Shown one piece after another: positions 1,588 to 23,491 of a stretch of 36,131 bases of DNA (its first letter is position 1; each line of letters opens with the position of its first letter). Origin of the DNA: a phage. Both the position numbers and the translations under genes were made by a program. The notes beneath the pieces are model-generated. The model was not told where the DNA came from. It saw only the letters and a program-made list of their open reading frames with translations, and searched no databases. The stretch is taken from the NCBI GenBank assembly GCA_018175075.1, contig GCA_018175075.1_4100.3; one strand, given 5' to 3'.

Positions 1588-1588
1588 A

Positions 1589-2234: not shown

Positions 2235-2235
2235 T

Positions 2236-3182: not shown

Positions 3183-3241
3183 CTTGACAGTACTTTTCAT
3201 TACTGATATAGTACACTAACGTTAATCATAGGGTAAAAATT

Positions 3242-3804: not shown

Positions 3805-3997
3805 TCAAGAATGGAAGACCCAAAAGTACAGGGAATTCAACAGGAATTTTACAAAAGATGCATTGAATTTAAAAACAACAGAGTTTGATATGTTTATTTT
3901 TCTTGGAACACGTTCACAAGAACAATTTGTTCATTATTATATAAATTCGTTGCGAACGGAGATAGTATGCAAAACACAGGGTATTATAAAAAGGTAA
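3779..3997 (+). CDS. hypothetical small protein, family A
   Basis: Motif FLGTRSQEQFV; apparent TTG start with GGGAGAA RBS, no in-frame ATG until codon 38. Confidence 0.5.
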   Translation: MKSIYKTINQEWKTQKYREFNRNFTKDALNLKTTEFDMFIFLGTRSQEQFVHYYINSLRTEIVCKTQGIIKR

Positions 3998-4233
3998 ACC
4001 AATATTTGTACGCTACAAAGTACAGGGATTTTTGTTTAAAGGGTGGTGATGAAGATTTTTCTTTGCGATTATCAGAATTTAATCTGTTATTTTATCTTGG
4101 TACAAAAGAACAAGAAGAAATGGCACAGAAATTTATCAAGCACCTTTTACAAAAAATTAATATGCAAATTTTGATGCTTAAGTTACAGAATGAGATAAAT
4201 GAATATGAATCCAGAAATAGTTCAGGATCTTAA
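3967..4233 (+). CDS. hypothetical small protein, family A
   Basis: Motif YLGTKEQEEMA. Confidence 0.6.
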   Translation: MQNTGYYKKVNQYLYATKYRDFCLKGGDEDFSLRLSEFNLLFYLGTKEQEEMAQKFIKHLLQKINMQILMLKLQNEINEYESRNSSGS

Positions 4234-4591
4234 AAAAGTAATATTTCTTTTGAATACCAGAAGTGAATTGTATACAGAGTTAAAAGAGATTAATGCATTT
4301 TATCAGAATTTTGTAATCCAAGAGTTCAGTGATTTAATTACAGATGCATTATTTGAATTCTCGGAGAAATACAAAGGAACAGAGTTCAGTGTTAAGAATG
4401 TTATTCGTCCAAGTACAAGGAAAATTATATTATCACATTTTACATTTGACAATAAAGATTTATTCAGTCATAATCCAAGTACAGCTTTATATTTTATTCC
4501 TGATTCAGACAAAAATCATCCTATTCATTACGGATGGATTTTGTCATATATAGTACAAGGAAAGGAGTATCCTATTAAATGGAAAGATTAG
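4199..4591 (+). CDS. hypothetical protein
   Basis: 130-aa ORF, neither family motif; ATG 4199. Confidence 0.5.
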   Translation: MNMNPEIVQDLKKVIFLLNTRSELYTELKEINAFYQNFVIQEFSDLITDALFEFSEKYKGTEFSVKNVIRPSTRKIILSHFTFDNKDLFSHNPSTALYFIPDSDKNHPIHYGWILSYIVQGKEYPIKWKD

Positions 4592-4739
4592 GGCGATTAG
4601 ATTATTACACAATTAATACAAATTATTTGTTGCGTAATATAAAATCCGATTACAAAATATGGATAAAGAACAGAGATAGCATGTGTTATGAATTTTATTT
4701 AGATTATGCTATCAAACGATTTTTAAGAGAAGAACATTA

Positions 4740-4943
4740 ATGCAAAAGATTAATACGATAACATTAAATGCATTACAGGATTCATTATTAGATAGTATTA
4801 AGATGTATTACAATATACATTTGAAGGGTGGTATTGATAATTACGATTATTATTTGAGTTTAATTACATTTGAGCACCTTTCAGTACAGGACAGGATTTT
4901 ACATCCTACAAATCCTAGGTATCCATCGATAGGTAAATTATGA
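4740..4943 (+). CDS. hypothetical protein
   Basis: 67-aa ORF after 148-bp gap; coupled (ATGA) to downstream gene. Confidence 0.45.
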   Translation: MQKINTITLNALQDSLLDSIKMYYNIHLKGGIDNYDYYLSLITFEHLSVQDRILHPTNPRYPSIGKL

Positions 4944-5488
4944 ATGAGATAGAGTTATTAGCACACAAGATAAGTACAATAATGCTTATCCTCAATAACA
5001 ACCATCCTATATCGCATATAGATGGAATCCTGAGTCAGAGGACAGGTGGTAGTTTATATTTGTCCATAAACGCAGATATCGCAAGGAAATACATTGATAT
5101 TGATGTTGAAATCGAATATGATACAACGGGGATTGTTGATGTAGGTGCATTAATCAGTTCAAATCCAGTATCAGCATCCCCATTGACCAAAGATGTTAGT
5201 ACAGGATTCGAAGGATATTTGTGGTACAATACCAATGATGATTATTTTATATATCAGCATTCCAATACAAATTATGATGAAGACAAATTTCAGTTCATAG
5301 ACCCTTATGATGAAGCTGAAGTATTTCAAAAATCATTAATCACAAAACCGCATGAGATGATGTATCTAATGTTATTCAGTACAATGCATTTGAATCCATT
5401 AATTAAAGGTTTAAAATTTTATATTCAATTAAATTTAGTCCATGTAGTTTATGATTTATTAATGCAAGGATATAGTTATGAAGTATAA
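4940..5488 (+). CDS. hypothetical protein, family B (divergent)
   Basis: Motif EAEVFQKSLITK. Confidence 0.6.
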   Translation: MNEIELLAHKISTIMLILNNNHPISHIDGILSQRTGGSLYLSINADIARKYIDIDVEIEYDTTGIVDVGALISSNPVSASPLTKDVSTGFEGYLWYNTNDDYFIYQHSNTNYDEDKFQFIDPYDEAEVFQKSLITKPHEMMYLMLFSTMHLNPLIKGLKFYIQLNLVHVVYDLLMQGYSYEV

Positions 5489-5789
5489 AATGATGTATAC
5501 CCCAGATATGATTTATGTTGAATTAGAAGATGATGACGATGGGTGGAATTTGATTTATTCAAGAAGTTCAGGTTGGTACATGGCACATTTAAATGATTCG
5601 ATAGTTACAGATTATTTTGTAGATTTCAATACATTATCCGATGAAGAATTGTTCCAACAGCAATTAGTGATTGACACGGGTGGTTATGATGTCTTATTAT
5701 TAAAAAAGATACAGAAAGCTGTTATTGATTTTAAGCCCATGATATGGCAAAGGAAATATTATGACCTCGAAGTACCGTACCAGCAATGA
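5478..5789 (+). CDS. hypothetical protein, family B
   Basis: Motif DEELFQQQLVID; AAGGA RBS. Confidence 0.65.
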   Translation: MKYKMMYTPDMIYVELEDDDDGWNLIYSRSSGWYMAHLNDSIVTDYFVDFNTLSDEELFQQQLVIDTGGYDVLLLKKIQKAVIDFKPMIWQRKYYDLEVPYQQ

Positions 5790-6327
5790 AATTCAGTACA
5801 CCTACGCTAATGCAATCCTTATGGGACAAAAGTTAGCTTGTATTGTTGCATCCTTATATAATGCCCAGAAATATCACAAGCGTCATTTCCACAAATGTAT
5901 TGGTATTATTCCATCGAAGTACAATACATATATTGCGTGCACGAGTCATTTTGATAAACGATTCAATACACCAGATATACCAAATGCCCGTAGTGTTATT
6001 GGTCTTTTGGATTTCGCACCTGGTGCTGTTATTGGAAAGAATGATTTAGAGTACGCATGGTATAATAAAAATTCCCCATTAGTAATGGTAACATATGATA
6101 AAGAAACGAACAAAACAATAGAGTACAATACATATAAATCAGAGGAAGAATTTTTCCAAGGTTCAATGCTTGTACCAGTGCGTTTGTTATTTTATAATGT
6201 CATAATGAGTACAGTACACAATAGTCCATTACACAAGAATCACAAAATTAATTTCAATTTTTGTGCTTATGCGATTGATGGTGTGTATGAGTGTTTAATG
6301 GAGGTATTGAGTTATGAAGCTGAATAA
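5761..6327 (+). CDS. hypothetical protein, family B
   Basis: Motif EEEFFQGSMLVP. Confidence 0.65.
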   Translation: MTSKYRTSNEIQYTYANAILMGQKLACIVASLYNAQKYHKRHFHKCIGIIPSKYNTYIACTSHFDKRFNTPDIPNARSVIGLLDFAPGAVIGKNDLEYAWYNKNSPLVMVTYDKETNKTIEYNTYKSEEEFFQGSMLVPVRLLFYNVIMSTVHNSPLHKNHKINFNFCAYAIDGVYECLMEVLSYEAE

Positions 6328-6655
6328 TACATTTGATATTAATAAGTTAAGAGAATGGTTTTATAGTATTGAAATTGAAGCCATCCCGTATCATAGATAT
6401 GAACAATATAATTTAACCAGTATTGATATCCGTGAGTTGTACGCGTATTATCAAAGTGCATTAGAGATGCATAAGATATTTTTGAGTACAGATTTTGTTC
6501 TAAATTACAATTTTGAGGAATTTAATAATTATAATTTAGTACAGAAATATGTAGTAGCAAAGTACATGTACCTTCAAGGAATTACAAGTATAGTTGAATT
6601 TAATACAGTTCTTGCTTTAGTTGAGGTAATTTTATGCAGTACATGTATGATTTAG
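6314..6655 (+). CDS. hypothetical protein
   Basis: 113-aa ORF; GGAGGT RBS; no clear family motif. Confidence 0.55.
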   Translation: MKLNNTFDINKLREWFYSIEIEAIPYHRYEQYNLTSIDIRELYAYYQSALEMHKIFLSTDFVLNYNFEEFNNYNLVQKYVVAKYMYLQGITSIVEFNTVLALVEVILCSTCMI

Positions 6656-7140
6656 AGTTCAGCTTAGATGCTGCATTTAAATATGTTCACAAGATAGAAA
6701 CAATATACAGTACATTATGTGCAATAAAATCAGTAACAGAAGAGCTTGATGTTGGTGAAAAATATCAGGTATGGAATAATACATTTTTAAATAAAGAACG
6801 TTGCTCTACGGGGTTTAATATTTTAACATTTAATCCCAGCAATTGTTACCCAGAGAAGCATGAACGTTATCCGAATGACGACATGTGGTTTGAGTACAAA
6901 GAAGATTGTGATATGTCGTTCATTGAAGTTCCTGATGATTTTAATGCACAAGATTTAACAGACGAGTGGTGGTTCCAGCAGAATTTAGTCCACGATGATA
7001 TTGATTTATTTTTTTATGTAGTATTTAAAATGCTTTATCACAACAATATAGTACAAGATAGTGTATTTTTTTCATGTCTATATATTGATGATTTGTACAA
7101 TGAAATTCAAATCAACATGCCCATAACGCCTGTATCGTAA
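6634..7140 (+). CDS. hypothetical protein, family B
   Basis: Motif DEWWFQQNLVHD; GAGGT RBS. Confidence 0.65.
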   Translation: MQYMYDLEFSLDAAFKYVHKIETIYSTLCAIKSVTEELDVGEKYQVWNNTFLNKERCSTGFNILTFNPSNCYPEKHERYPNDDMWFEYKEDCDMSFIEVPDDFNAQDLTDEWWFQQNLVHDDIDLFFYVVFKMLYHNNIVQDSVFFSCLYIDDLYNEIQINMPITPVS

Positions 7141-7155
7141 GATATGGGCTTTTTT
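7119..7155 (+). terminator. possible rho-independent terminator
   Basis: GCCCATA / TATGGGC 7-bp stem, 17-nt loop, then TTTTTT; overlaps stop codon of 6634-7140. Confidence 0.4.
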
Positions 7156-7165
7156 CGTTTTGGTA

Positions 7166-7194
7166 TTGACATAGAAGACCAAAGCTGTTATCAT
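7166..7194 (+). promoter_or_regulatory. sigma70-like promoter
   Basis: TTGACA (7166-7171), 17-bp spacer, TATCAT (7189-7194). Confidence 0.6.
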
Positions 7195-7222
7195 GTGTAT
7201 TCATTTTAAAGGAGAACATATA

Positions 7223-7735
7223 GTGAGTTTCATAATCCCAAGTACATACGAAGATGCATCAAGTGCAGTTCATAAGATTCATTATATTTTTAATTTAATT
7301 ATTAAATCTGCAAAAATTAAAATGTATGCACCTCTTGTGACAAATAATCGAAATGAAGAAATTTTTATTAGCACAGACAAAATTATTTTTCCATATTTCA
7401 ATGAAGATAGATTGTGGTTCATACATTTAGCTGCATTACAAAAATATAAGATGTCAATTCGTAATAATTTGGTTATACCGTTATATCATCCCGATATTGG
7501 AGAGGATGAGTATTTTCAGTACAGCACAGTACACCGCCATGAAGATATCTTTGCTGCTATGCTTATTGCTAAATTGAACACCGTTGATTTGGAGCAGTAC
7601 AAATACAATAATAAATCATGTAAGATCATAATCCCTGCATTCATAGCTCTTTATGATTATGTGGTGCATAACATAAAAGATGATACATATGCTTTCAATG
7701 AAGAGTATTTGGATTTTTTTAAGGAGAACATATGA
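7223..7735 (+). CDS. hypothetical protein, family B
   Basis: GTG start 8 nt after AAAGGAGAA RBS (track extends to ATG 7193 inside promoter); motif EDEYFQYSTVHR. Confidence 0.6.
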   Translation: MSFIIPSTYEDASSAVHKIHYIFNLIIKSAKIKMYAPLVTNNRNEEIFISTDKIIFPYFNEDRLWFIHLAALQKYKMSIRNNLVIPLYHPDIGEDEYFQYSTVHRHEDIFAAMLIAKLNTVDLEQYKYNNKSCKIIIPAFIALYDYVVHNIKDDTYAFNEEYLDFFKENI

Positions 7736-8271
7736 GCAGTACAACAGTATCAAAAGTACAGAAAGCAATGTCATTCAATGAAATTGGTACATTTAAAGAT
7801 AAGATCATTGATTGCCTTGAATACATGATTTGTAGTAATATCGAAAGTATCGAGATATTTAACAAGACAAATCGCTCTTACCATATGATGTACATTGCAA
7901 ACAATAATGGTATCATTCCATTTATTTCGGATAGTACAATATGGTACGCATGTGATACGAAAAAAACCACAATAGGTTTACATTTATTTGAGACACATTA
8001 TGATCTAATTATTCCTGAACATTGTATGCAAGAAGAAGAATATTTTCAAATGCAATGTATACATTCACCATTAGTGTTGTTTAGTTTATATATTATACCT
8101 TATATCACCAAATGTGTTCATGAGAATAAAGCTCCGTGGAATCATGAATTTGTATCGTTGAAGTTATTGTATAATGTATTAGTAGAATATTATGATTACA
8201 GGCACAATGGTACAATCAGTGATGTATGGGATTTTGAATCGCTAAGGGTGAAAACATACACAGGTGAATGA
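7732..8271 (+). CDS. hypothetical protein, family B
   Basis: AAGGAGAA RBS; ATGA overlap; motif EEEYFQMQCIHS. Confidence 0.7.
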   Translation: MSSTTVSKVQKAMSFNEIGTFKDKIIDCLEYMICSNIESIEIFNKTNRSYHMMYIANNNGIIPFISDSTIWYACDTKKTTIGLHLFETHYDLIIPEHCMQEEEYFQMQCIHSPLVLFSLYIIPYITKCVHENKAPWNHEFVSLKLLYNVLVEYYDYRHNGTISDVWDFESLRVKTYTGE

Positions 8272-8887
8272 TATGACCAGAATTAAAATGTATGATTTGA
8301 TGCAGTACAGTAAAATTGCCATTCCAGTGCTTAATAAAGTGCTGGATGCATTCATTGCCAAATACCCTGAGAATTCAGTGTTATGTATTCCATTTAGTGT
8401 TCCAGATAAAGATGATATATTCCAAGTGAATGTCAGTACACGTGGTATTACATTGCAGCAGAAATATATGGATACGGAATATTATGGAATAAAGTTGGAT
8501 TCAGTACAGGGTTCTAAATCAGCCTATGATTTTTTTGTTCCTAATAACATCGAGTCATGGGAAACAAACATTTCAAAGAAAGATGAAAATGATGTTCCTA
8601 TTAGTGGTGTGTTCAACAATAAAGTTTTTTATTATTACGAAACCGACAAATTCCCTGAAGAGTTATATTACAATTCAGAAATGAATGAAGATGTAGATGC
8701 ATTCATGTTTCAATTATCTTTAGTACATGATATCATTGATGTTCAAGAGTTAAGAGCAGAAATCAATTTAGCTAAAGAGTTATCGGACATGCTGCCACCG
8801 TTTAGTATGCTTTTTTGTGAAGGTGGTTATTTTTCAAAAGAAGTGTTTGAACATTTCGTAGATGTTGTAAAAGGGTTGGATATATAG
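8264..8887 (+). CDS. hypothetical protein, family B
   Basis: Motif DAFMFQLSLVHD; alternative start ATG 8273. Confidence 0.65.
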   Translation: MNDMTRIKMYDLMQYSKIAIPVLNKVLDAFIAKYPENSVLCIPFSVPDKDDIFQVNVSTRGITLQQKYMDTEYYGIKLDSVQGSKSAYDFFVPNNIESWETNISKKDENDVPISGVFNNKVFYYYETDKFPEELYYNSEMNEDVDAFMFQLSLVHDIIDVQELRAEINLAKELSDMLPPFSMLFCEGGYFSKEVFEHFVDVVKGLDI

Positions 8888-8888
8888 T

Positions 8889-9083
8889 ATGCTTACAGTT
8901 GATGTTAAACAAAAATACCGTAAGTTTGATTGGTTCACCGACAGCTTCCAGCTTGAATTATTACATTTGAATATCTGTGAAACATTATGTGCAGAAACAC
9001 AAGATGAATTTGATGATAGAGTGATGAACATAGTAATGCTTTCTTGCTTTAAACATTTTGGTTATTTTTTCGGACAGAATTGA
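8889..9083 (+). CDS. hypothetical protein
   Basis: 64-aa ORF filling gap between family B genes. Confidence 0.45.
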   Translation: MLTVDVKQKYRKFDWFTDSFQLELLHLNICETLCAETQDEFDDRVMNIVMLSCFKHFGYFFGQN

Positions 9084-9091
9084 GGTAAAAA

Positions 9092-9607
9092 ATGCATCAA
9101 CACAAGCATCATTCATATGATTTTGCAATTAACATTATGAAGTTCATTCGAGCGTTGGAGGATGGGAAGCTTAGTCATAAGTACACCAAAGTAGGTGACA
9201 ATTGGTTCAGAAATGATGATGAGTTCAGAAGTCATAAGATTGTTTACAGCAATAATTACAGTGCCAATTACCTACAAGATGTAGTGATGTGTTTTGAATA
9301 CGTGTTGCAGTTCAGGGGTTCAATCCAGGATGAGTTGATGGAGCACATGTACATCCGATACCTTCCAATGCTCAAAGATGAAAATGTATTATTAAATTCA
9401 ATATACCAACGAGTTCGTGAAATTGAGTGCAGGGATATATTAGATACAGAAGAATCGTATTTCCAGCAATCCCTGATTTATGCACCTGATTTATTACAGG
9501 TACATAATTTGTTTAATACATTACGTCAAAACATCAGTACAGACATATTTTTGTCATTATCGAATTATGATACATTTGTCAAAGATTTAGAGGAAATAGG
9601 TTTATGA
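9092..9607 (+). CDS. hypothetical protein, family B
   Basis: Motif EESYFQQSLIYA; GAGGT RBS. Confidence 0.65.
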   Translation: MHQHKHHSYDFAINIMKFIRALEDGKLSHKYTKVGDNWFRNDDEFRSHKIVYSNNYSANYLQDVVMCFEYVLQFRGSIQDELMEHMYIRYLPMLKDENVLLNSIYQRVREIECRDILDTEESYFQQSLIYAPDLLQVHNLFNTLRQNISTDIFLSLSNYDTFVKDLEEIGL

Positions 9608-9948
9608 GTCGATTTTCGGTTTATATAGTAAACGTCAGTAAAGATGGTAGTTTAATTGAATTTGATGTAGTTGATAACAATGATAATTCATATGGTATTA
9701 AGGTACAGGACAATGATGTACAGTTCAGTACAAGGACAAATTTTGAGAATCCAGTCCAAGTTCCGAATTTCATAGAAGATGAAGCTGCACGATTCCAATA
9801 CGAAACGGCATATGACAATGTACATATGCATATTATTATGCAAACGAGTTTAGTTCAATTAGTTCCTTTGTTCAGACAAAATATATATGTACATGAAGTG
9901 TCGATTAATGGCATTCAAAGTTCCGTTTTGTTCGGTACAAATATGTAA
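9604..9948 (+). CDS. hypothetical protein, family B (divergent)
   Basis: ATGA overlap; motif AARFQYETAYD. Confidence 0.55.
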   Translation: MSRFSVYIVNVSKDGSLIEFDVVDNNDNSYGIKVQDNDVQFSTRTNFENPVQVPNFIEDEAARFQYETAYDNVHMHIIMQTSLVQLVPLFRQNIYVHEVSINGIQSSVLFGTNM

Positions 9949-9958
9949 GGAAAGTACA

Positions 9959-10510
9959 ATGAGTTCAATGAGTTTATTAGATACATTAGAAAAAGACAGA
10001 AGTGCAATTAAGCGTTTAAAAGAGCAAGTACAAAAGATTGTATACAACGTTGATAAGTTTGAAGTCCCAGGAAGATTTGGTGATATTTCCCATACGGAGA
10101 TCAAATCCCTTAAGTCAGATTTGTTGATTAAAAATAAAAATGGGTTGATTTTAGTTTTGAGTTCAGATATGATGGGGGCAACACATAGTTATAATGCAGT
10201 ATCGGTGCGTTCAGAGTGTGAAGGTATATATCTATCACAGGGTTTCAATAGCGAGACACAGGTTTGTTTTTGTGATGCAGTACATGACCCTATGAAGTTC
10301 ACGAGAAGTGAAGCCCAAGCGTTATTAGAGCTATCAGACGAGAGTTTGTTTCAGTACAGTACAATGTATGACAATGATAAGCTTCGTTGTATGTACGCTG
10401 TAAAGCATTATACACAGGAGTTTTCTGGATTTGCATACCTTTTAGTTAGAACCAATACCAGATATATTGATATGTTAGAAGATTACATCGATAAAGTTGT
10501 TAATGTATGA
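9959..10510 (+). CDS. hypothetical protein, family B
   Basis: AAGGAAAG RBS before ATG 9959 (track extends to 9887); motif ESLFQYSTMYD. Confidence 0.6.
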   Translation: MSSMSLLDTLEKDRSAIKRLKEQVQKIVYNVDKFEVPGRFGDISHTEIKSLKSDLLIKNKNGLILVLSSDMMGATHSYNAVSVRSECEGIYLSQGFNSETQVCFCDAVHDPMKFTRSEAQALLELSDESLFQYSTMYDNDKLRCMYAVKHYTQEFSGFAYLLVRTNTRYIDMLEDYIDKVVNV

Positions 10511-10532
10511 TGTATGATTATGGGATGGGATA

Positions 10533-10709
10533 ATGCTGATGAAAGAGTTATTTGAAGATCAGTTCAATACATATGTGGATAATATTCTTTATTCCAGCCG
10601 TGCTAGTCAACGAGGAAATCGTGCTTACAATATAGATTACCTATTAGTGGTGCTGAGTTCACAGTACACCAATGCGGTACAAAGGGTTTATTATGAAAAG
10701 TGCAAGTAA
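10533..10709 (+). CDS. hypothetical small protein (58 aa)
   Basis: ATG ORF below track size cutoff, found by manual translation; overlaps next ORF. Confidence 0.3.
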   Translation: MLMKELFEDQFNTYVDNILYSSRASQRGNRAYNIDYLLVVLSSQYTNAVQRVYYEKCK

Positions 10710-10902
10710 TAGTGATATTGCAAAGGAGAAGTTCAAGTGCAGTTTAGATTTTGGGTTAAATGATTTTCTGACATGCACAATGTACAGGAATGATGATTAT
10801 GAGCAATCCGTAATTTCGTTGCACAGATATTTCGAAATAATTTACGCAAGATATCTTAGAAGGTTAGAGGGAATAGGGGATTGGAATTATGATTACGTTT
10901 GA
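10693..10902 (+). CDS. hypothetical protein
   Basis: Track ORF 10672-10902; internal ATG 10693 has AAAGGG RBS-like sequence; start uncertain. Confidence 0.45.
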   Translation: MKSASNSDIAKEKFKCSLDFGLNDFLTCTMYRNDDYEQSVISLHRYFEIIYARYLRRLEGIGDWNYDYV

Positions 10903-11113
10903 AGAGCCGGAAGTGGCATATTGCTTTAGTGTGAAAGGTTTTGAATTCATGATGGATTCTATTTTGAAGGATACATATTTGGTTCAGATTGCAGTTCCAG
11001 ATAATACAGATAATGCATTACAGCGAGTATTGAATATATACGAGAGGACGAGTCGAAGGCTTTGTGCAATGAAAAGGATTGAAGAAATCAAGCTTTCTAT
11101 GCTGAATAAATAG
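10889..11113 (+). CDS. hypothetical protein
   Basis: 74-aa ORF; GGGGA upstream of ATG. Confidence 0.5.
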   Translation: MITFEEPEVAYCFSVKGFEFMMDSILKDTYLVQIAVPDNTDNALQRVLNIYERTSRRLCAMKRIEEIKLSMLNK

Positions 11114-11138
11114 AGACGTTTCATTTTGACAGGCCGCT

Positions 11139-11147
11139 GGGGGGGGG
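11139..11147. repeat. G9 homopolymer tract
   Basis: Nine consecutive G in intergenic region, directly after a TTGACA hexamer (11126-11131) and before an A7 run. Confidence 0.9.
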
Positions 11148-11312
11148 TCAAAAAAATTTCCGCTGAAAAACATGCTAAGGTATATGTTTAATATAAAGTT
11201 TTATATTGTGTTTTTCAGAGTACAGTTCATGTTTCTTGAAACAAAAAATACCCCGCCGCCGAACGTTCTCCTTATATTGGAGTTTACCTTATTAATTATA
11301 GTAGAGATTAAG

Positions 11313-11690
11313 ATGGAAATAAAATATAATGAATTTTGTGCAAGGACATGGATGTACACTGGTGAGTTAGTTACGCACTCTAACTTATACAAGGGTGATT
11401 TAAACTACGCTAGGGACAAGATTTTAAAGTACTGGAATGCTGACTTTTATTTGATGGATTTTAGTACTGGGTTTAGGGGTAAAGCAACCGAGATGTTGGA
11501 CTATACAGTACTTGATGATGCTGCACTGTTTCAGGCGGCATTAGTATTTGATAAGAAGTACATCTGTACATTAGAAGAGATGATTGAATTACAGCGTAGA
11601 ATTAAATGTATTCACAGAGAATGTATAGACATCTGGTGCAGTACTGGTGAAGATGATTTTTGTAATCATTTCAATCTAGGGGAAGAGTGA
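11313..11690 (+). CDS. hypothetical protein, family B (KGD subfamily)
   Basis: Motif DAALFQAALVFDKKY; start set at ATG 11313 by length match to paralogs at 12219 and 12572 (track extends to 11172). Confidence 0.6.
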   Translation: MEIKYNEFCARTWMYTGELVTHSNLYKGDLNYARDKILKYWNADFYLMDFSTGFRGKATEMLDYTVLDDAALFQAALVFDKKYICTLEEMIELQRRIKCIHRECIDIWCSTGEDDFCNHFNLGEE

Positions 11691-11775
11691 TGGAATTTGA
11701 TTTTTTAATATCAGTACATTCTTTTAAGCACAGTTATCAGTACTTTTGTAATTTAAACAAAGGTGATTTGATTAT
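11686..11775. repeat. direct repeat, copy 1 (~85 bp)
   Basis: Near-identical to 12215-12304 (about 3 mismatches); includes TGATG junction and 5' end of a family B gene. Confidence 0.8.
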
Positions 11776-11851
11776 GGATACAGATACAGAGGCTGTATAC
11801 AGTTCTAATATTCTGTACAAATTCAGTACTAATCTGAAGGAGATTTTATGA
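11690..11851 (+). pseudogene. truncated paralog fragment (53-aa ORF)
   Basis: First ~28 codons near-identical to N-terminus of gene 12219-12575, then diverges and stops; TGATG coupling at both ends. Confidence 0.4.
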
Positions 11852-12219
11852 AAAAAGAAATTAGAATTCAATTCGGTATGAGGAAAAAAGAGGTCATCTG
11901 TACACTGAATCATGCGGTCGTGGAAAGCCTTGGTGGTGCATTACAAAAATTCTCCCATTTTGTTCTTGTACTATATGAAAATGGGTCTTTTAAAATCTTC
12001 ACATATGATGATTCAAAAAATTACCGTAATGATTTTGTAAATCTGACAGTACTGTCAGAAGAGGAATTCTTTCAGGAAAGTACTGTCTGGAATTTACCAG
12101 GAGCACCAATTGAATACGTCCGTGCTACACAGGCAGAAATGATCAAAGTAATGCAGAACTATCCAGAAGATTATATGACTAAGTTTCCTGAATCTATTTA
12201 TGTAGAGGTTGAGTACTGA
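11848..12219 (+). CDS. hypothetical protein, family B
   Basis: AAGGAG RBS; motif EEEFFQESTVWN; C-terminus VEY like 2468-2812. Confidence 0.7.
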   Translation: MKKEIRIQFGMRKKEVICTLNHAVVESLGGALQKFSHFVLVLYENGSFKIFTYDDSKNYRNDFVNLTVLSEEEFFQESTVWNLPGAPIEYVRATQAEMIKVMQNYPEDYMTKFPESIYVEVEY

Positions 12220-12304
12220 TGGAATTTGATTTTTTAATATCAGTACATACTTTCAAGCACAGTTATCAGTACTTTTGTAATTTAAACAAAGGTGATTTAA
12301 TGCA
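12215..12304. repeat. direct repeat, copy 2 (~85 bp)
   Basis: Partner of 11686-11775. Confidence 0.8.
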
Positions 12305-12575
12305 CAGTGCAAATGAGTATATTCATTACACTCAGGGTAAATTTACATTCATTGATTACAGTTCATTACAGTATCCACACCAAGATATGCCGGACTATAC
12401 ATTAATGGATACCGCAGAACTATTCCAAGAATCATTAGTATTTGATAAGAAGTACTTGTGTACATTTGAAGAAGTTATTGCAATACAAAATGAAATGAAA
12501 GAGTATGCTGCTTTGCATAAACCCAATGCAAGTATTAATCAAGAATACAAATTCAATTTAGGAATTCAAGAATGA
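12219..12575 (+). CDS. hypothetical protein, family B (KGD subfamily)
   Basis: Motif TAELFQESLVFDKKY. Confidence 0.65.
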   Translation: MEFDFLISVHTFKHSYQYFCNLNKGDLMHSANEYIHYTQGKFTFIDYSSLQYPHQDMPDYTLMDTAELFQESLVFDKKYLCTFEEVIAIQNEMKEYAALHKPNASINQEYKFNLGIQE

Positions 12576-12931
12576 CATATGATTATTCTATGTACTATTA
12601 TAAGTTACCTAAAGGATGGGACTTGTGCTGTAATCTTATTAAGGGCGACTCGGAACATGAGTTGAGTTTATATATGCATTACAAAGATTCTTGTTTTAAA
12701 TTTATTCATGTATCACATGACGACTATGACTATGAATCTGAGAGTCTTATAGATTATACAGTACTGGACGATGGTGAACTATTTCAGGCTGCATTAGTGT
12801 TTGATAAGAATAAGTACTCCTGTACATTTGAAGAAATGGTTTCTTTGCAAAATGAAATGAAGAGATTTGAAAAAGAAAACGTATTTAATCCATCCCCATC
12901 AAGAACGAATAATTATTATTTCAATATATGA
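12572..12931 (+). CDS. hypothetical protein, family B (KGD subfamily)
   Basis: ATGA overlap; motif DGELFQAALVFDKNKY. Confidence 0.65.
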   Translation: MTYDYSMYYYKLPKGWDLCCNLIKGDSEHELSLYMHYKDSCFKFIHVSHDDYDYESESLIDYTVLDDGELFQAALVFDKNKYSCTFEEMVSLQNEMKRFEKENVFNPSPSRTNNYYFNI

Positions 12932-12940
12932 GATTATAAA

Positions 12941-13432
12941 ATGACATTACAGAGTTCATTGGAAAAAGCAAAGAAGATTCATGAGTACATGAATATGGCA
13001 AAAGAAGGTTCAGTTTACGGTGTTTTCAAAGACACAAGTACTCAATATTATGTACCGGATAACCTCCTTTATAATGACTGCTCAGATACAGAAACGTGCG
13101 TACTGGATACAGAAACGTGCATACTAGATACCGACCCTAATGATTATGAATGCTTCATTAATATGCATAATGAGTACATGGTCTATATTAATGATACAGA
13201 TACCATCAACAGTACTGACAGCGATTCCAATGACATTATAATTCCGAGTGAAGTACTGGAAGGTCCGTGGGATAGTGAAGAGTATTACTTCCAACAAAGT
13301 ACTGTATATGATAATGAAGTACTTGATGTTATTATAATTATGTGGTACTTTAAAAGTATTGGTTCTGGGAACTTCTATTTCGATTACAAATACGTAAAGA
13401 AAACTGTAGATAACGGTATTAACAGGGGTTGA
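12941..13432 (+). CDS. hypothetical protein, family B (MSL subfamily)
   Basis: N-term MTLQSSLEKAKKIHEY; motif GPWDSEEYYFQQSTVYD; contains in-frame 21-bp tandem repeat. Confidence 0.65.
   Translation: MTLQSSLEKAKKIHEYMNMAKEGSVYGVFKDTSTQYYVPDNLLYNDCSDTETCVLDTETCILDTDPNDYECFINMHNEYMVYINDTDTINSTDSDSNDIIIPSEVLEGPWDSEEYYFQQSTVYDNEVLDVIIIMWYFKSIGSGNFYFDYKYVKKTVDNGINRG
13085..13131. repeat. in-frame 21-bp tandem repeat (2 copies plus partial)
   Basis: gatacagaaacgtgcgtactg / gatacagaaacgtgcatacta / gatac; encodes DTETCVL-DTETCIL-DT. Confidence 0.8.
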
Positions 13433-13433
13433 A

Positions 13434-13904
13434 ATGAGTTTAGAAAGAGCATTAGAGATTGCGAAGTTAATTGATTTATGCAGCAAAGAAATTGTAGCAA
13501 ATTGTCTTAATGGATATCTATTCAAGGAAGGTAAATCATATTGTCGAATGAGATACGATGACAGTAGTGAGTACATTCACATGTATGAAGAAAACTTAGA
13601 TTCTTCTGAAACAACACTCAATGGGTGTGATGTTAATTTGGAAGATAATTACATGTACTTCTGTCGTGATGCTGATATTTTAATACAAGATTCTGACATT
13701 ATATCTGGTGCAGCAGAGAAACATCTTCCGTATTCAGTACTGGATAATGACTGGGGAAGTGAAGAGTACTACTTCCAGCAGAATACTATCTACGAGGAAG
13801 ATGTACTTGACAAGCTTGTCATTCTGTGGTACTTTAATAATACAGATTGTCCTAGCTTCTATTTGGACTTGGATCTACTACGAGTTATTAAAGAGGATAT
13901 ATGA
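13434..13904 (+). CDS. hypothetical protein, family B (MSL subfamily)
   Basis: N-term MSLERALEIAK; motif DWGSEEYYFQQNTIYE. Confidence 0.65.
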   Translation: MSLERALEIAKLIDLCSKEIVANCLNGYLFKEGKSYCRMRYDDSSEYIHMYEENLDSSETTLNGCDVNLEDNYMYFCRDADILIQDSDIISGAAEKHLPYSVLDNDWGSEEYYFQQNTIYEEDVLDKLVILWYFNNTDCPSFYLDLDLLRVIKEDI

Positions 13905-14344
13905 GTTTAGCAAGTGCACTTGAACTAGCACACAGAATACATCACTTCCACGATAACATAAAAAGTGGTTTCTATGGTGATAAAGTAAGTGCATTTGGTA
14001 ATGAGTATTATCTATCAGGTATAAAGACATACTCTGATGATATTTTACTTATGGGTCATGATAAAGACAATACTATACAGTACTCTTCATGTAGTCAATA
14101 TACTAATTTTTTTGTATATATTCCAGGTACTAAGATTACTTTTGACACAACAAATACACCTGTTGACTTCGGGGTACTTGATGGCCCGTGGGGTACTGAA
14201 GAGTATTACTTCCAACAGAGTCTCATTTTTAACCAAGAAATTCTTGATTCCTTGGTTGTGTTGTGGTACTTTAAGGAATTGAATTTTGAACCATTCTTTC
14301 TTGACTGGGGAGCATGTGAATATTTAAGTACAGGGGATTTGTAA
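13901..14344 (+). CDS. hypothetical protein, family B (MSL subfamily)
   Basis: N-term MSLASALELAH; motif GPWGTEEYYFQQSLIFN. Confidence 0.65.
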   Translation: MSLASALELAHRIHHFHDNIKSGFYGDKVSAFGNEYYLSGIKTYSDDILLMGHDKDNTIQYSSCSQYTNFFVYIPGTKITFDTTNTPVDFGVLDGPWGTEEYYFQQSLIFNQEILDSLVVLWYFKELNFEPFFLDWGACEYLSTGDL

Positions 14345-14832
14345 TGTCATTACAAAGTGCATTGAAAGAAGCAAAGAAGATTCATGAGTACATGATTATG
14401 GTACAGGAAGGTTCAGTACCAGGTGTATATAAAACATCTGATACTGAATTTTTTGTAAAAGACCGTGACGATTATGACGAGTCCGAGATATGTGCAGAAA
14501 CATTAGTACTGCACACTGATACTGGTGACAGTGATAACTGTGAATATCATATGTACAATCAGTACATTAGTTATTGCCGTAATGAAGATATTACCATCTA
14601 CAACACAGATAGTGATGCTGATGACACTATCATTCCTTATTCAGTACTGGAAGGTCCGTGGGATAGTGAAGAGTATTACTTCCAGAATACTACGTTGTAC
14701 AATGAAGAAGAATTAGATGTTATTGTAATTATGTGGTATTTCAAAAGTATTGACTCCAGTAGTTTCTATTTTGATTATGAATATGTAGAGAATACTGTAG
14801 GAGAAGGTAATGTCATTACAAAGTGCTCTTGA
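14344..14832 (+). CDS. hypothetical protein, family B (MSL subfamily)
   Basis: N-term MSLQSALKEAKKIHEY; motif GPWDSEEYYFQNTTLYN. Confidence 0.65.
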   Translation: MSLQSALKEAKKIHEYMIMVQEGSVPGVYKTSDTEFFVKDRDDYDESEICAETLVLHTDTGDSDNCEYHMYNQYISYCRNEDITIYNTDSDADDTIIPYSVLEGPWDSEEYYFQNTTLYNEEELDVIVIMWYFKSIDSSSFYFDYEYVENTVGEGNVITKCS

Positions 14833-15262
14833 AAAAGCAAAAGAACTACATGGATACTTTGACGATATAAAGGCAGGAAAGTTCAAAGAAGTGTACAAAG
14901 CCGAGAACGGCAACTACTACAAAGATGAAATGTATAATAACTCCGTGGGTGTAAGGGTTATTCTTGGGTTGAATTCCAATAGTCCTATATCGTTTTCTGA
15001 ATACAATAGAGATGCAGAATTTATTAGTTATGTTGAAAATGGTAGCATTCGTTTTATTAATCGCAAAAAACCATTAATTTTGAATTATGAAGTACTGGAT
15101 GGTCCGTGGGATAGTGAAGAGTATTACTTCCAAAACAGTACTGTTTACGATGATGAAGTACTTGAAGCATTAGTTATTATGTGGTACTTAAAGAGTGTTA
15201 ACTGTCCTCGATTTTATTTGGATTTCGAAGAACTTCGTAAAGATCCAGAAGGTATAGAATGA
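14810..15262 (+). CDS. hypothetical protein, family B (MSL subfamily)
   Basis: N-term MSLQSALEKAK; motif GPWDSEEYYFQNSTVYD; GGAGAAGG RBS. Confidence 0.65.
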   Translation: MSLQSALEKAKELHGYFDDIKAGKFKEVYKAENGNYYKDEMYNNSVGVRVILGLNSNSPISFSEYNRDAEFISYVENGSIRFINRKKPLILNYEVLDGPWDSEEYYFQNSTVYDDEVLEALVIMWYLKSVNCPRFYLDFEELRKDPEGIE

Positions 15263-15573
15263 AAAACTTATTCAGTGTTCAGTACGTCCCTGGTGAAATT
15301 AGTTTATTGTATCTGTTTGATCATGATAATTCATTATTACTAGTAGTAAAGAAATGCCAAGCTAGTTCGTTTGTTGAATACATTCACGATAGTGAATATA
15401 TACCTGATTTTTTAGAGTGTGATTATTACGATGAACATGAATCATTTATTTTCCAGGAATCGCTCGTATGGGATAAATCGATCAACTTCTTTACGTTAAT
15501 TGAATTACAAAAGCAGGTGAAGTATCATTGGAATTACTTAATCACACAGGATTACATTGAGATAGAAATATAA
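15259..15573 (+). CDS. hypothetical protein, family B
   Basis: Motif ESFIFQESLVWD. Confidence 0.6.
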   Translation: MKNLFSVQYVPGEISLLYLFDHDNSLLLVVKKCQASSFVEYIHDSEYIPDFLECDYYDEHESFIFQESLVWDKSINFFTLIELQKQVKYHWNYLITQDYIEIEI

Positions 15574-15881
15574 TGACTAAAAATGAATTTGATTCACTTT
15601 GTACGGTTTATAATTCATTGACAGAAATACCTGACTTTATTAATTACATTTCAGCTTTAAATCAAATTATGCATAGTTTTGAACAATCGTTTGAAGAGAA
15701 ATATGCTGGTAGAAAAGTTCTATGTCATATGTCAATGTACTTAGGAGATGGTGAGCCTTACACTACAAGTACTACATGTGAAATAAAAAAATATAATATA
15801 TTATTGGGGACAATAGAATTCACAGTATCCAATGGTGGTAGTTATATGTACTTTAGAGATGGAGTGGTTGAATTATTATGA
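15573..15881 (+). CDS. hypothetical protein
   Basis: 102-aa ORF without family motif. Confidence 0.5.
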   Translation: MTKNEFDSLCTVYNSLTEIPDFINYISALNQIMHSFEQSFEEKYAGRKVLCHMSMYLGDGEPYTTSTTCEIKKYNILLGTIEFTVSNGGSYMYFRDGVVELL

Positions 15882-16327
15882 GTTACGAAAGTGCAATCAA
15901 GAAAGCAAATGATATTCTACGCGTCGTTAAATTCTTCAAAGAAAATCCTGAATACTTAGCTGATGAAAACCATGATCACGATGAGAGATTGAGACGAAAA
16001 ATTGTCGCTTTATTTGACACTAATGCGGATAATTATAGTCTAATTGAGTTAGCATACGATTATATTTCATTGAACCGAAACGGCAATATAGTTAATATAG
16101 AAAGACATGCAACTGAAGAATCTTTTAAAATTTCAGATATTTTATCCCTGAGTACTGAAGAAGGGTACTTCCAGGGTAGTACTGTTTATGAACAAGGAAC
16201 ACTTGACAATCTATGCACATTCAGTGTAATATATCAGAAATCTGTACTAGATGTATTTTATCTTGACACTGCTGAACTGGATACACTAACCAATTTTGTT
16301 ACTACTGAAGAGGCTACATTCGAGTGA
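15878..16327 (+). CDS. hypothetical protein, family B
   Basis: Motif EEGYFQGSTVYE. Confidence 0.65.
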   Translation: MSYESAIKKANDILRVVKFFKENPEYLADENHDHDERLRRKIVALFDTNADNYSLIELAYDYISLNRNGNIVNIERHATEESFKISDILSLSTEEGYFQGSTVYEQGTLDNLCTFSVIYQKSVLDVFYLDTAELDTLTNFVTTEEATFE

Positions 16328-16860
16328 TGAAAGTTAACATCAATGACTTTGATGCATTACAAGATTTATCAAAAAAGATTCGCACCATTGTACCAGTACT
16401 CAAAAAATGCAGTACTGGTTTAATCGATCCTAGTACTGTTGTTAATGAGAAGTACAATTTTCATTATGTATTACAGGGTACTGGGGCATTCCAGAAGTGT
16501 GAGGTGCGTGAGACACACGTAATTGATACATCATTGTTTTCTATTGGTGCACCTGTGTCGAATAATACTATTTTCCTAGACAACGCTGGAAATATTCAAC
16601 AATTAACATTTAAGAAAAGGAAAAAGAACAATAACATTGGTGTGTATGCGATGAAGTGGGGTCAACCTGATTTGAAGCGTGAAATTCACATCCCTAAGTA
16701 CAATTACAATGCATTTGACGAACAGTGTTTTCAACTATCGTGTACTGACCCTGACTATGCTATCATTCAGTTCTATATGGAATTGCAGATTGCATTTAAC
16801 AGTAATTTGTATATTAACTTATTGGCGATGAACATCGATGAAGTATTCAAAAACATTTAA
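16327..16860 (+). CDS. hypothetical protein, family B (divergent)
   Basis: Motif DEQCFQLSCTDP; ATG 16327 overlaps upstream TGA (track begins GTG 16324). Confidence 0.55.
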   Translation: MKVNINDFDALQDLSKKIRTIVPVLKKCSTGLIDPSTVVNEKYNFHYVLQGTGAFQKCEVRETHVIDTSLFSIGAPVSNNTIFLDNAGNIQQLTFKKRKKNNNIGVYAMKWGQPDLKREIHIPKYNYNAFDEQCFQLSCTDPDYAIIQFYMELQIAFNSNLYINLLAMNIDEVFKNI

Positions 16861-17056
16861 TCGAATTGAATACATGAGAACTGTGAGTGCAGTGTGGGAC
16901 ATATGGTTCACTACTAAACCAAAAATGGATTACCATGACTTTAAGCTCTTGTTCTTCGTTGGCTCTAACAAACAGGATGTTGCAATGAAGGGTTATATTC
17001 AGCACTTACAGGAACTAATCCAGAAGAGAATATATGAAAATAATAGACCAAAATGA
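16838..17056 (+). CDS. hypothetical small protein, family A
   Basis: Motif FVGSNKQDVAMKGYI; alternative start ATG 16874. Confidence 0.55.
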   Translation: MKYSKTFNRIEYMRTVSAVWDIWFTTKPKMDYHDFKLLFFVGSNKQDVAMKGYIQHLQELIQKRIYENNRPK

Positions 17057-17225
17057 TATTGCTAAACTATTCAATATATATTCTACTAGAATGATGCAAA
17101 CAGACTCATATAGTACTGAATTCAAAGAGTTGAAAGTCCTGATGTACTTGGGAACCCAATATCAGGAACAAGTTATTTTGGAATATATTAATTCGCTGAA
17201 GAAGGATATCCGTTATGTACGATGA
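17034..17225 (+). CDS. hypothetical small protein, family A
   Basis: Motif YLGTQYQEQVILEYI. Confidence 0.6.
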   Translation: MKIIDQNDIAKLFNIYSTRMMQTDSYSTEFKELKVLMYLGTQYQEQVILEYINSLKKDIRYVR

Positions 17226-17775
17226 TTTAGATCTTGCGTTTGAACGTATGGTAATTTTAATGCAATGTGCAGAAATGCATGAAACAATCCGTCGCACCAA
17301 AGGGATTGAATATACAAGTAAACTATTCTCATACGAAAGTCGTCGAGGGATGGATCATTTTTACTGCACTGATTGTTCAAAGTTTTCAGTACTGAAATAT
17401 TATCATCCTACTGTTTCCAATAATAGTTTAATATCCACATATGACGGTGATCTGTTTAGTGTAATGTATGACACATTACATCCATCAATTTCAATCTATA
17501 AAGATTGCGATAGTAGTTTATCGTATATAATTGAAGATTACTTATCTCCTAATACTGAAGAGAATATTTTTCAGAACAGTGTGTTGCATGATGAATTAAG
17601 TATAAAATGCATCTATATGTTCAATAAGTTAAAAGAGTACGCCGATAATAATTACTTAATTGATAAGTTAGCAGTATTGTCTGTTTCCGTTTTTAATACA
17701 AATGACATTGATATGAAATACTATAATGAGATTTGTAAAGTACATCATATGTATAAGGAATTACTATGTTATTAA
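17215..17775 (+). CDS. hypothetical protein, family B
   Basis: Motif EENIFQNSVLHD. Confidence 0.6.
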   Translation: MYDDLDLAFERMVILMQCAEMHETIRRTKGIEYTSKLFSYESRRGMDHFYCTDCSKFSVLKYYHPTVSNNSLISTYDGDLFSVMYDTLHPSISIYKDCDSSLSYIIEDYLSPNTEENIFQNSVLHDELSIKCIYMFNKLKEYADNNYLIDKLAVLSVSVFNTNDIDMKYYNEICKVHHMYKELLCY

Positions 17776-18368
17776 ATGCAAATAAATGTTGTAGTGCAGA
17801 TGTGCATTTGTTTTTTAAGAAATTAGTAAATGATATTATCTATATGCAAGAAATCATTTATCACAAAAGAATGGACTTAGAAAAAGCATTAGTTCAGTTC
17901 TCTTTTATGCTGGATGGGATTATTACTCTAGATGGTGATGGATTGCGTATAGCATTTGACGGTAATTCAAATAGGGTTTTCTATTGGATGAATAATAAAT
18001 TATGTTCCTCAATTTGCCGCACTTTTTATAACCCTATTTCGGACTTATATCAATTGGTGTATTCTAAAGGTGCAGTAGAAGCATCATATGGTGATGGTTA
18101 TGCCCTAGGAAAGAGTATTCCATTTATGAAATCATTTAAAATAGAACACATCAGTACTGATGAAGATGCAATGTTCACAAATGATATAACTATGGGACGT
18201 GAAGATGCAATGCGATATATTACAAATTCTATGCATACATTCTTTCAACGAACAGAATTTGATAATGTATATATATCAAATGTAAATATTTTCAATGACC
18301 TGTGTCAGTACTTGAGAAGTGTTTGTGATTTTGATGAAAGCTATTGTAAGCTTTATACTGAGGTATAA
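17766..18368 (+). CDS. hypothetical protein (family B-like, degenerate)
   Basis: AAGGAA RBS; weak motif EDAMFTNDIT. Confidence 0.55.
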   Translation: MLLNANKCCSADVHLFFKKLVNDIIYMQEIIYHKRMDLEKALVQFSFMLDGIITLDGDGLRIAFDGNSNRVFYWMNNKLCSSICRTFYNPISDLYQLVYSKGAVEASYGDGYALGKSIPFMKSFKIEHISTDEDAMFTNDITMGREDAMRYITNSMHTFFQRTEFDNVYISNVNIFNDLCQYLRSVCDFDESYCKLYTEV

Positions 18369-18373
18369 AACAA

Positions 18374-18736
18374 ATGAACACATTAAGTATTACATACTAT
18401 ACAACTAAAAAATTAGTTACTTGTTTAATATCATTGAAGACAAACCATGATGATATGTTTGATATGGCTGCATATGAATTAGAATTATCAGAAGATGGCT
18501 TCAAGAGCTATGAAGTATATAGCTATGTTCGTGAAGATGTAATTGACACTACACTAATGCAAGAGGATGAGTTATTCCAAGAAAGTTTAGTATGGGATAA
18601 TAAGTACGATTGTAACTTTGATTTCTTATGTTTAATCCAGAAAGAAATGAAAAGAATCTTTGATAATTATCCAGTGAAGAGATTGAGTACTGGACCGGAG
18701 CAGTACAGGAGAATTTTATTCCGTTATGAAGACTGA
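18374..18736 (+). CDS. hypothetical protein, family B
   Basis: Motif EDELFQESLVWDNKYD (KGD-subfamily-like C-terminus). Confidence 0.65.
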   Translation: MNTLSITYYTTKKLVTCLISLKTNHDDMFDMAAYELELSEDGFKSYEVYSYVREDVIDTTLMQEDELFQESLVWDNKYDCNFDFLCLIQKEMKRIFDNYPVKRLSTGPEQYRRILFRYED

Positions 18737-19061
18737 ATTAGTGAAAGTAATGTACGCTACTCATATTAAACTACTACTTGTGAAATTTGATTATAATAAA
18801 AAACATAATGATTTCTATACTTTAATTCGTGATGAAAATACATTCTCCTTGCGATGCAACAATATACCGTTGAAGATAAATGATTTTACTTCACTTGACG
18901 AGGGGGAATTATTTCAAGAATCATTAGTTTTTAATAGTAATATAAAAATTGATATAGAAGTTATTAAAAAATACCAGATTCTATTGAACAAAATTATGAA
19001 TTGTTATCCATGTGAAATAGGTGGTCATATGCAGTTCAAATCAAAAATGTATGAATTATGA
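18726..19061 (+). CDS. hypothetical protein, family B
   Basis: Motif EGELFQESLVFN. Confidence 0.65.
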   Translation: MKTELVKVMYATHIKLLLVKFDYNKKHNDFYTLIRDENTFSLRCNNIPLKINDFTSLDEGELFQESLVFNSNIKIDIEVIKKYQILLNKIMNCYPCEIGGHMQFKSKMYEL

Positions 19062-19068
19062 GGTTTAT

Positions 19069-19605
19069 ATGTTAGATAAAAAAATGAACTCTGGAACCCA
19101 ATATAATCATCTTAAGTTGGATACATTCGAATCAGCTATCAGTACAGCACAAGATATAATTGATATTATCAAGTTCATTAAAGAAGATAAGTTCAAATGT
19201 TTGAAAATACTAAATCGTTCAATGTACCGTGATAAAAATATTCATGTATCAGTACGTAGACCGAAAGATCAAGAAAGTGGGAGAGATTTCTATAACAACA
19301 GTGAGCAGTTCGAATGTGAATATGATCCAGAATTTAGAGGTGGTTTCATGTGTTACAGTATGAAGGATACCTCACACATTGAGATACGTTCATCGAAAGG
19401 TGGCATACGTACATTAGAGTTTATTGATATAGTTTTAAATCAGGAATACTACTTTCAACTATCATTATTGTTTCCTGCATACGATTTAGGAGTTCTATTC
19501 ATGTATAAGTACTTTCATGAGCACTGGAATGAAGACTTCTATCTGGACTTAGAAGATTACCAATTAGTTTGGGAAGAAATGGTAGAACTTCGCAACCACT
19601 CTTGA
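19069..19605 (+). CDS. hypothetical protein, family B
   Basis: Motif QEYYFQLSLLFP; start set at first ATG after upstream stop (track GTG 19021). Confidence 0.55.
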   Translation: MLDKKMNSGTQYNHLKLDTFESAISTAQDIIDIIKFIKEDKFKCLKILNRSMYRDKNIHVSVRRPKDQESGRDFYNNSEQFECEYDPEFRGGFMCYSMKDTSHIEIRSSKGGIRTLEFIDIVLNQEYYFQLSLLFPAYDLGVLFMYKYFHEHWNEDFYLDLEDYQLVWEEMVELRNHS

Positions 19606-19631
19606 CACCCACCGATTTTTTGTGATATAAT
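19602..19631 (+). promoter_or_regulatory. sigma70-like promoter
   Basis: TTGACA (19602-19607, overlapping upstream stop codon), 18-bp spacer, TATAAT (19626-19631). Confidence 0.65.
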
Positions 19632-19654
19632 CCCTTTATATTAATTGTAAAGGG
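19632..19654 (+). promoter_or_regulatory. inverted repeat in 5' leader
   Basis: CCCTTTA / TAAAGGG 7-bp arms with 9-nt loop, between -10 element and ATG 19665. Confidence 0.5.
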
Positions 19655-19664
19655 TTATAACACA

Positions 19665-23481: not shown

Positions 23482-23491
23482 TGTTTATGGC

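Follow-up and report, generated by a model that had tools for sequence, protein, structure and literature searches.

The 85-nt direct repeat at positions 11688–11772 and 12217–12301 of the window, by which we mean the whole analyzed stretch of phage DNA with its 36,131 nucleotides, is in all likelihood the scar of a microhomology-mediated, ectopic gene capture from a related, co-infecting phage. The captured cargo is gene X (11848–12219), which encodes 123 aa and lies between the two repeat copies, and the first repeat copy now forms the start of a short chimeric open reading frame (ORF). All features described here are on the + strand.

Setting, repeat, and chimeric ORF

Over the 4 kb around the locus, the DNA shares 92–99% identity with Asteriusvirus jumbo phages of Escherichia and Salmonella, among them 121Q, PBECO4, G17, phAPEC6, and slurp01, and the window belongs to an Asteriusvirus jumbo coliphage of the 121Q/PBECO4/G17 group. 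Small genes, all on one strand, make up the whole window, which has 32% G+C and is dominated by tandem paralogue families, and no tRNA genes were found in it. Gene A (11313–11690, 125 aa), the intact gene B (12219–12575, 118 aa), and gene C are tandem paralogues of phrog_15629, and X belongs to the related phrog_13866; no function is known for either PHROG, and when A, B, C, X, the chimeric ORF, the gene A4_364 of phage A4, and the neighbors were scanned against Pfam and PHROGs, all families returned were of unknown function. B, X, and the gene 366 that follows X in A4 belong to one superfamily, and A, B, C, and X have a conserved motif with the consensus EEELFQESLV in common. This motif is shared by a superfamily of 15 small proteins at 2468–21372 of the window (for example, those at 2468, 2778, 3484, 4940, 5761, 11313, 11848, 12219, 12572, 18374, 18726, 19665, 20613, and 20959), and F75 and Q76 of X were invariant in an alignment of 13 sequences. 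A second family with nine members (12941–15262, 15878, 17215, 20138, and 21372) carries the related motif EEYYFQQSTVYD, and both motif-bearing families are restricted to RaK2-like jumbo phages and have no known function. The gene at 12941–13432 of that family also contains a 21-nt tandem duplication (13085–13126; GATACAGAAACGTGCGTACTG twice, 90% identical and in perfect register) that encodes DTETCVL/DTETCIL.

A repeat search of the window and the direct comparison of the two copies showed identity at 82 of 85 positions, with exact runs of 32, 4, 44, and 2 nt and a start-to-start spacing of 529 nt, and the flanks immediately outside either end are unrelated between the copies. Nothing else in the 36-kb window exceeds about 86% identity, the other paralogue repeats being at 60–86%, and the 44-nt run is the longest exact repeat of the window, compared with an average of 16 and at most 18 in first-order Markov simulations. 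The 85-nt repeat is thus real and exceptional, as is confirmed by these comparisons, and since more than 30 independent assemblies have the same repeat–cassette structure, it is not an assembly artefact. A near-exact duplication of about 85 bp with a gene between its copies had already been claimed in the first-pass annotation, whose ends were right within 2–3 bases, and it is indeed a gene-sized cassette that sits between the copies. The repeated unit spans the stop/start overlap TGATG and codons 1–28 of gene B: copy 1 (11688–11772) is derived from the recipient and comprises the overlap of the A stop and the B start, with the TGA of gene A overlapping the ATG of the copy, and copy 2 (12217–12301) opens the intact gene B. 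Genomes without the cassette have an unchanged A|B junction, with A as the left neighbor of B. In phage UE-S1 (L016), the region that elsewhere consists of genes A and B is covered by a single annotated CDS of 729 nt (1503–2231), which reflects either a fusion of A with B or a discrepancy in annotation or sequencing at the TGATG junction.

The chimeric ORF (11690–11851) starts with the ATG at 11690 and ends with a stop codon at 11849–11851 that overlaps the ATG of X as ATGA. It encodes 53 aa, in which residues 1–28 of B continue in frame into the C-terminal tail of a protein of the A4_364 type, and it is annotated as a CDS in G17, slurp01, and Turkey3, and with 74 aa in 121Q. The ORF had been taken for a truncated paralogue of B, which fails after codon 28, as from there on it aligns with the 3′ end of a different gene: in phage A4, the X homologue A4_365 is directly preceded by the full-length, 192-aa gene A4_364. 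This gene, of a family with about 195 aa, occurs in full length only in A4-type relatives, directly upstream of X; a search of 5.8 billion proteins with A4_364 yielded one other cluster. A4_364 aligns end to end, including the C-terminus, with the window paralogue at 17766–18365 (24% over 193 aa), and therefore the tail is native to the family of about 195 aa, and the 53-aa ORF is a derived chimera. That the ORF might be a full-length distinct gene in relatives, which was to be considered as an objection to the first reading, consequently applies to one of its halves: the tail portion is full length in A4-type relatives, but the first 28 codons are those of B. The remnant of the 3′ end of the A4_364-type gene (11773–11847) carries the native Shine–Dalgarno sequence of X, AAGGAG. 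Within this remnant, at 11806–11820, 63 bp that are present in 121Q and A4 were secondarily deleted in frame between the imperfect direct repeats TAATGTTCTGTGCAA and TAATATTCTGTACAA. 121Q and the metagenomic contig L034 still have the 63 tail nucleotides that the window lineage lost, which gives their ORF a length of 74 aa. The dN/dS values were 0.35–0.68 for the tail and 0.14–0.52 for X, with very few substitutions behind both ranges.

This composition also bears on another reading, in which unequal crossing-over duplicated B in tandem, the first copy then decayed, and the sequence between the copies was inserted or diverged; to this we assign next to no probability. The first 28 codons are duplicated, and the tandem paralogues A, B, and C render unequal crossing-over plausible, but there is no similarity to B after the repeat, the boundary is sharp and lies at a microhomology, and the sequence that follows, the 364 tail with X, is 88–95% nucleotide-identical to A4-type loci. 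Tandem duplication of B was therefore rejected as the source of the sequence between the copies: the 444 nt found there consist of the 364 tail and X, and their module has a non-allelic position in A4.

The cargo itself gave few matches. Pfam had no match for X, and the AlphaFold model, a beta-sheet with two helices (pLDDT 81), matched nothing in the PDB at E ≤ 0.001 in a Foldseek search; in BFVD, only unknown proteins of RaK2-like phages were matched. The relatives found in a homologue search with X were all at least 94% identical, and an IMG/VR search returned only 121Q itself and one distant relative. Nuclease domains such as HNH, GIY-YIG, or LAGLIDADG, and features of recombinases or transposases, were not found in X by Pfam, PHROGs, PDB, or BFVD comparison. 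Transposable elements have terminal inverted repeats and short target duplications (2–15 bp). If a transposase or homing endonuclease had inserted the cassette, the 85-nt repeat would be a target-site duplication or a product of co-conversion; this reading would agree with the direct duplication of the target sequence and with a presence/absence polymorphism of a sharply bounded identical tract, and HNH endonuclease genes are annotated elsewhere in A4. We nevertheless consider it highly improbable, as nothing but X and a gene fragment is encoded in the cassette, with X having no match to Pfam or to solved structures, as the only terminal inverted repeats near the cassette are 14-nt, 86% chance matches, and as 85 nt far exceed the target duplications of transposases. 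X may have a selective value for the phages that carry it.

Empty sites, donor module, and junctions

The comparison of relatives for presence or absence of the cassette, which the first-pass annotation had proposed, revealed a clean polymorphism in which the empty sites keep one repeat copy. About 11 sequenced phages carry the 529-bp insertion, and the cargo between the repeats (X with the upstream tail, about 441–444 bp) is present in 13 GenBank records; beyond these, at least 24 contigs, each about 350 kb long, encode the exact X protein in this context. The flanks are also matched by about 19 records, from 18 distinct phages, in which the span is exactly 1122 bp, or 1651 minus 529, and a base-level alignment shows that these empty sites consist of gene A, one copy of the repeat, and the remainder of B. 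The duplication is absent from the outgroups, the syntenic site of A4 having only one B-like gene (A4_350) and JNE01 having B without X, and the most diverged members of the clade, ph0011 and UE-S1, are empty, from which it follows that the insertion is derived within the PBECO4/121Q clade. The empty-site haplotypes T..T..A (PBECO4, SD15) and A..C..A (JP4) fit both never-filled and secondarily deleted sites. Near-complete Asteriusvirus genomes of about 350 kb occur as single contigs in assemblies that were deposited as bacterial isolates (L022–L031 and L036, NCBI GCA), and the protein P0005 is named as an E. coli protein. Such contigs are consistent with reported cases of lytic phage genomes in bacterial assemblies (PMC12768965).

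The origin of the cargo is indicated by its similarity and by its position. X shares 93.5% amino-acid identity with A4_365, compared with 27–28% for the positional counterpart of X in the window itself, and the cassette is 95% nucleotide-identical to the X of A4, with neighbors that are unalignable. In blastn comparisons, the spacer upstream of A, gene B, and the genes at 12941–14791 match the A4 locus at 14.2–17.4 kb, whereas X matches at 20.2 kb, an offset about 5–6 kb larger than that of the neighboring matches. At the protein level, A4 and the window are collinear: A4_350 corresponds to B, 354–357 to 12941–14344, 359 to 16327, 360 to 16838, 364 to 17766, 365 (X) to 18374, 366 to 18726, 367 to 19051, and 368 to 19665 and onward. 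Protein comparison thus identifies resident, diverged counterparts of the A4 donor module at 17766–19061, namely, those of A4_364 at 17766–18368 (24%), of X at 18374–18736, and of A4_366 at 18726–19061 (41%). As the donor module is located about 5–6 kb further downstream in A4 and the window keeps its own counterpart, the capture was ectopic, and the cassette is an additional, A4-type copy of X about 6.5 kb upstream of the resident diverged counterpart. In filled genomes, only one place matches X at the DNA level, which favors a transfer from a different, co-infecting phage. The larger region at 14800–28555 shows over about 14 kb no detectable nucleotide similarity to A4 (L038, 17420–34603), yet its genes are collinear at 24–41% protein identity, and these are extremely diverged positional orthologues between phages of one genus.

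Both junctions of the cassette could be located precisely. We aligned seven loci, three of the chimeric type (window, 121Q, and L034) and four of the A4 type (A4, L033, L036, and L037), and the homology between the two types runs exactly from GATTTGAT to TGATGGA. At the left junction, B reads GGTGATTT(A/G)ATGCAC, A4_364 reads CAGGATTTGATTATGGAT, and the chimera reads GGTGATTTGATTATGGAT; the 8 nt GATTTGAT (11765–11772) are common to A4_364 and the G allele of B, which is present in Turkey3, WPEC3, EC.P1, and fEgEco12. At the right junction, the recipient A|B sequence is GAGTGATGGAATTTG, the A4 X|366 sequence is TACTGATGGATTTAG, and the product is TACTGATGGAATTTG, with the 7 nt TGATGGA (12217–12223) being common to all; the TGATG therein is the generic stop/start overlap in this genome, and only two of the seven bases are really informative. 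At both joints, bases are thus shared without homology beyond them, which is what defines microhomology-mediated illegitimate recombination. Since the two limits of homology are exactly the two ends of the 85-nt unit, these 85 nt represent the segment of the recipient that lies between the exit point and a re-entry point upstream of it, and which was thereby duplicated.

Based on these sequence comparisons, we propose the following course of events. The recipient would have been an Asteriusvirus of the PBECO4/121Q type with the gene order A–B–C, and the donor a co-infecting A4-type genome with the module of the 364 gene of about 195 aa, X (365), and 366, about 5–6 kb further downstream. A recombination or replication intermediate would have exited the recipient near nucleotide 85 of B, at GATTTGAT, and entered gene 364 of the donor some 140 nt short of the end of this gene, where it would have copied the 364 tail and all of X. 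The intermediate would then have re-entered the recipient 85 nt upstream of where it had left, at the TGATGGA of the stop/start overlap with which B begins, and because the re-entry lies upstream of the exit, the first 28 codons of B would have been duplicated. The product is A, the in-frame fusion of B codons 1–28 to the 364 tail, X, B, and C, and a later in-frame 63-bp deletion between short repeats shortened the chimera from 74 aa, the form of 121Q, to the 53 aa of the window. The 529-bp unit then moved between genomes, and may have been lost from some, by homologous crossovers mainly in the invariant 3′ 25–33 nt of the repeat. The comparisons directly show the chimera, the two junctions, the donor and empty arrangements, the ectopic placement, and the mosaic spread; co-infection and the order of the two switches are inferred from them. 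Both parental configurations exist, with the empty A–B–C arrangement in about 18 phages and the full 364–X–366 arrangement in at least six contigs.

What speaks against this two-junction model is that it requires two illegitimate joins. A single unequal, illegitimate crossover between an A–B–C genome and an unsampled genome with the order 364–X–B–C, in which X already was next to B, would yield the same product in one event; only the left junction at GATTTGAT would then be novel, and X|B would be inherited. Such an adjacency is conceivable, as B, X, and 366 are of one superfamily and as the TGATG overlap is the same at X|B and X|366. However, X was found in only two contexts in all sources, the chimeric one and 364–X–366 (at least six independent contigs), and a full-length 364 followed by X and then by true B was not found in any source examined. 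In six of six independent A4-type loci, it is 366 and not B that follows X, and 366 is the positional counterpart of the window gene at 18726 and not of B. As the B counterpart A4_350 lies about 5–6 kb upstream of X in A4, the supposed parent would itself need an earlier rearrangement, and we therefore regard the single crossover as unlikely. A gapped DNA pattern for the full 364 tail and the junction of X with the next gene matched seven A4-type loci (six independent contigs) as a positive control, and had no matches in viral, metagenome, and genome contig collections, which are collections without A4-type phages.

Later spread of the cassette

After its formation, the cassette did not stay in one lineage. 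Copy 1 carries the allele of the left flank, its haplotypes falling into three groups that track the left-flank background, and copy 2 and the cargo are almost invariant among cassette-bearing genomes. In Turkey3, the 444 nt of cargo have no mismatch to the window, whereas gene A is only 85%, the rest of B 90%, and C 81% identical. The Turkey3 flanks are 72–91% identical to those of other filled genomes, but 98.4% and 99.3% identical to those of the empty fEgEco12, and both exchange boundaries lie between repeat positions 48 and 80, a segment that is nearly invariant in all genomes examined; no clade member varies in the 3′ 25–33 nt of the repeat. The flanks of the filled G17 and the empty E9.1 are 99.5–99.7% identical, CRJP21 and L028 combine a copy 1 of the 121Q type with a cargo of the window type, and in L037, an A4-type locus, X is identical to that of the window over its 5′ two-thirds. 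A cassette that is 100% identical in backgrounds that have diverged by 10–25% indicates a later spread, or loss, by homologous recombination within the repeats. The first-pass annotation had interpreted the locus as a recombination footprint between members of one gene family, and this is correct insofar as homologous recombination in the repeats explains the movement of the cassette, but not for the founding join, which used microhomologies of 8 and 7 nt to a non-allelic donor module. These mosaics show that homologous exchange is frequent, and that in diverged backgrounds the repeats serve as the effective homology arms.

Copy 1 of 121Q (L004, 1891–1973), CRJP21 (L009), and L028 contains a clustered divergent patch of 11 nt (GG.....GGTGCACC.......C) in B codons 11–19, which may be an old allele or a gene-conversion patch. 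The same codons are also hypervariable among B alleles, as in UE-S1 and JNE01.

The spread could also be due to an actively mobile cassette: recombination between the repeats would free a 529-bp circle with one repeat, the 364 tail, and X, which would re-enter any related empty genome through a single crossover in the invariant 25–33 nt at the 5′ end of B, in a manner resembling the mini-circles described for promoter early stem-loop (PeSL) elements. If true, this would be a nuclease-free “hitch-hiking” mobile gene and a coding-sequence analogue of the PeSL mini-circles. It would account for the 100% identity across diverged backgrounds, and it agrees with the invariance of the 3′ 25–33 nt and with the position of both Turkey3 boundaries, as predicted for a Campbell-type single crossover; moreover, mini-circles have been physically detected for ORFans flanked by direct repeats in RB49/phi1 (PMC2839356). 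We still find a mobile circle doubtful, as a double crossover or a gene-conversion patch between co-infecting filled and empty genomes gives an identical product, as the repeat is without a PeSL-like promoter or stem-loop, and as the circle would account for the spread alone and not for how the chimera arose, for which the capture at two microhomologies is the preferred explanation.

Promoter- and terminator-like sites were not in excess over shuffled sequences in our consensus scan, the consensus of which may not fit the promoters of these phages, and no such sites bracket X on the + strand. In the same scan, neither + strand promoter-like hits nor terminator-like hairpins were found within 11688–11772 or 12217–12301. 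The capture would have kept expression signals: the chimera would use the native upstream context of B, X the AAGGAG in the 364 tail, and B the TGATG overlap.

Comparison with known systems

The locus is an unusually complete natural example of the growth of an accessory region in jumbo phages, as the donor module, the empty site, both joints, the 74-aa intermediate of 121Q, and the later spread are all recoverable from public genomes. It shows that in RaK2-like phages, the alleles of hypervariable families of small genes are exchanged at ectopic as well as at allelic positions, and with Turkey3 and fEgEco12, and with G17 and E9.1, natural near-isogenic pairs exist for addressing the function of X. 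Our literature search found no paper that describes this locus.

The concept of illegitimate recombination stems from the literature on lambdoid phages and mycobacteriophages. In its microhomology-mediated form, it has long been put forward as the source of phage mosaicism (discussed in Martinsohn et al., 2008, PMC2327257). As in other cases in tailed phages, the novel joint lies at 7–8 nt that are shared by otherwise unrelated DNA, a whole gene has been added between existing genes, both parents are still sampled, and homologous exchange followed. What differs here is that the donor module and the precise empty site could be recovered together with both junctions, and that 85 nt of the target were duplicated, with the formation of an in-frame chimeric ORF. 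A moron is an autonomously expressed added gene that is flanked by its own promoter and terminator, and the cargo differs from a classical moron in that, according to the consensus scan, it has neither of its own.

In T4-type phages, PeSLs mediate modular shuffling that involves mini-circles (Arbiol et al., 2010, PMC2839356). The similarity to our locus is that an ORFan cassette lies between direct repeats some tens of bases long, within a hyperplastic region made up of small genes of unknown function, that the cassette is present or absent between close relatives, and that repeat recombination is the vehicle of gain and loss. However, PeSLs are intergenic, consist of a sigma-70-like early promoter with a stem-loop terminator, and occur many times per genome, whereas the repeat described here is coding, is present only twice, and has neither of these signals. 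Repeat-mediated deletion and duplication in paralogue arrays are a further parallel, as the locus lies in tandem arrays and the in-frame 63-bp deletion and the possible loss of the cassette are of that type; unlike in unequal crossing-over, the founding event joined non-homologous, non-allelic sequences. The locus is therefore a well-resolved new instance of a known process, and not a new kind of element.
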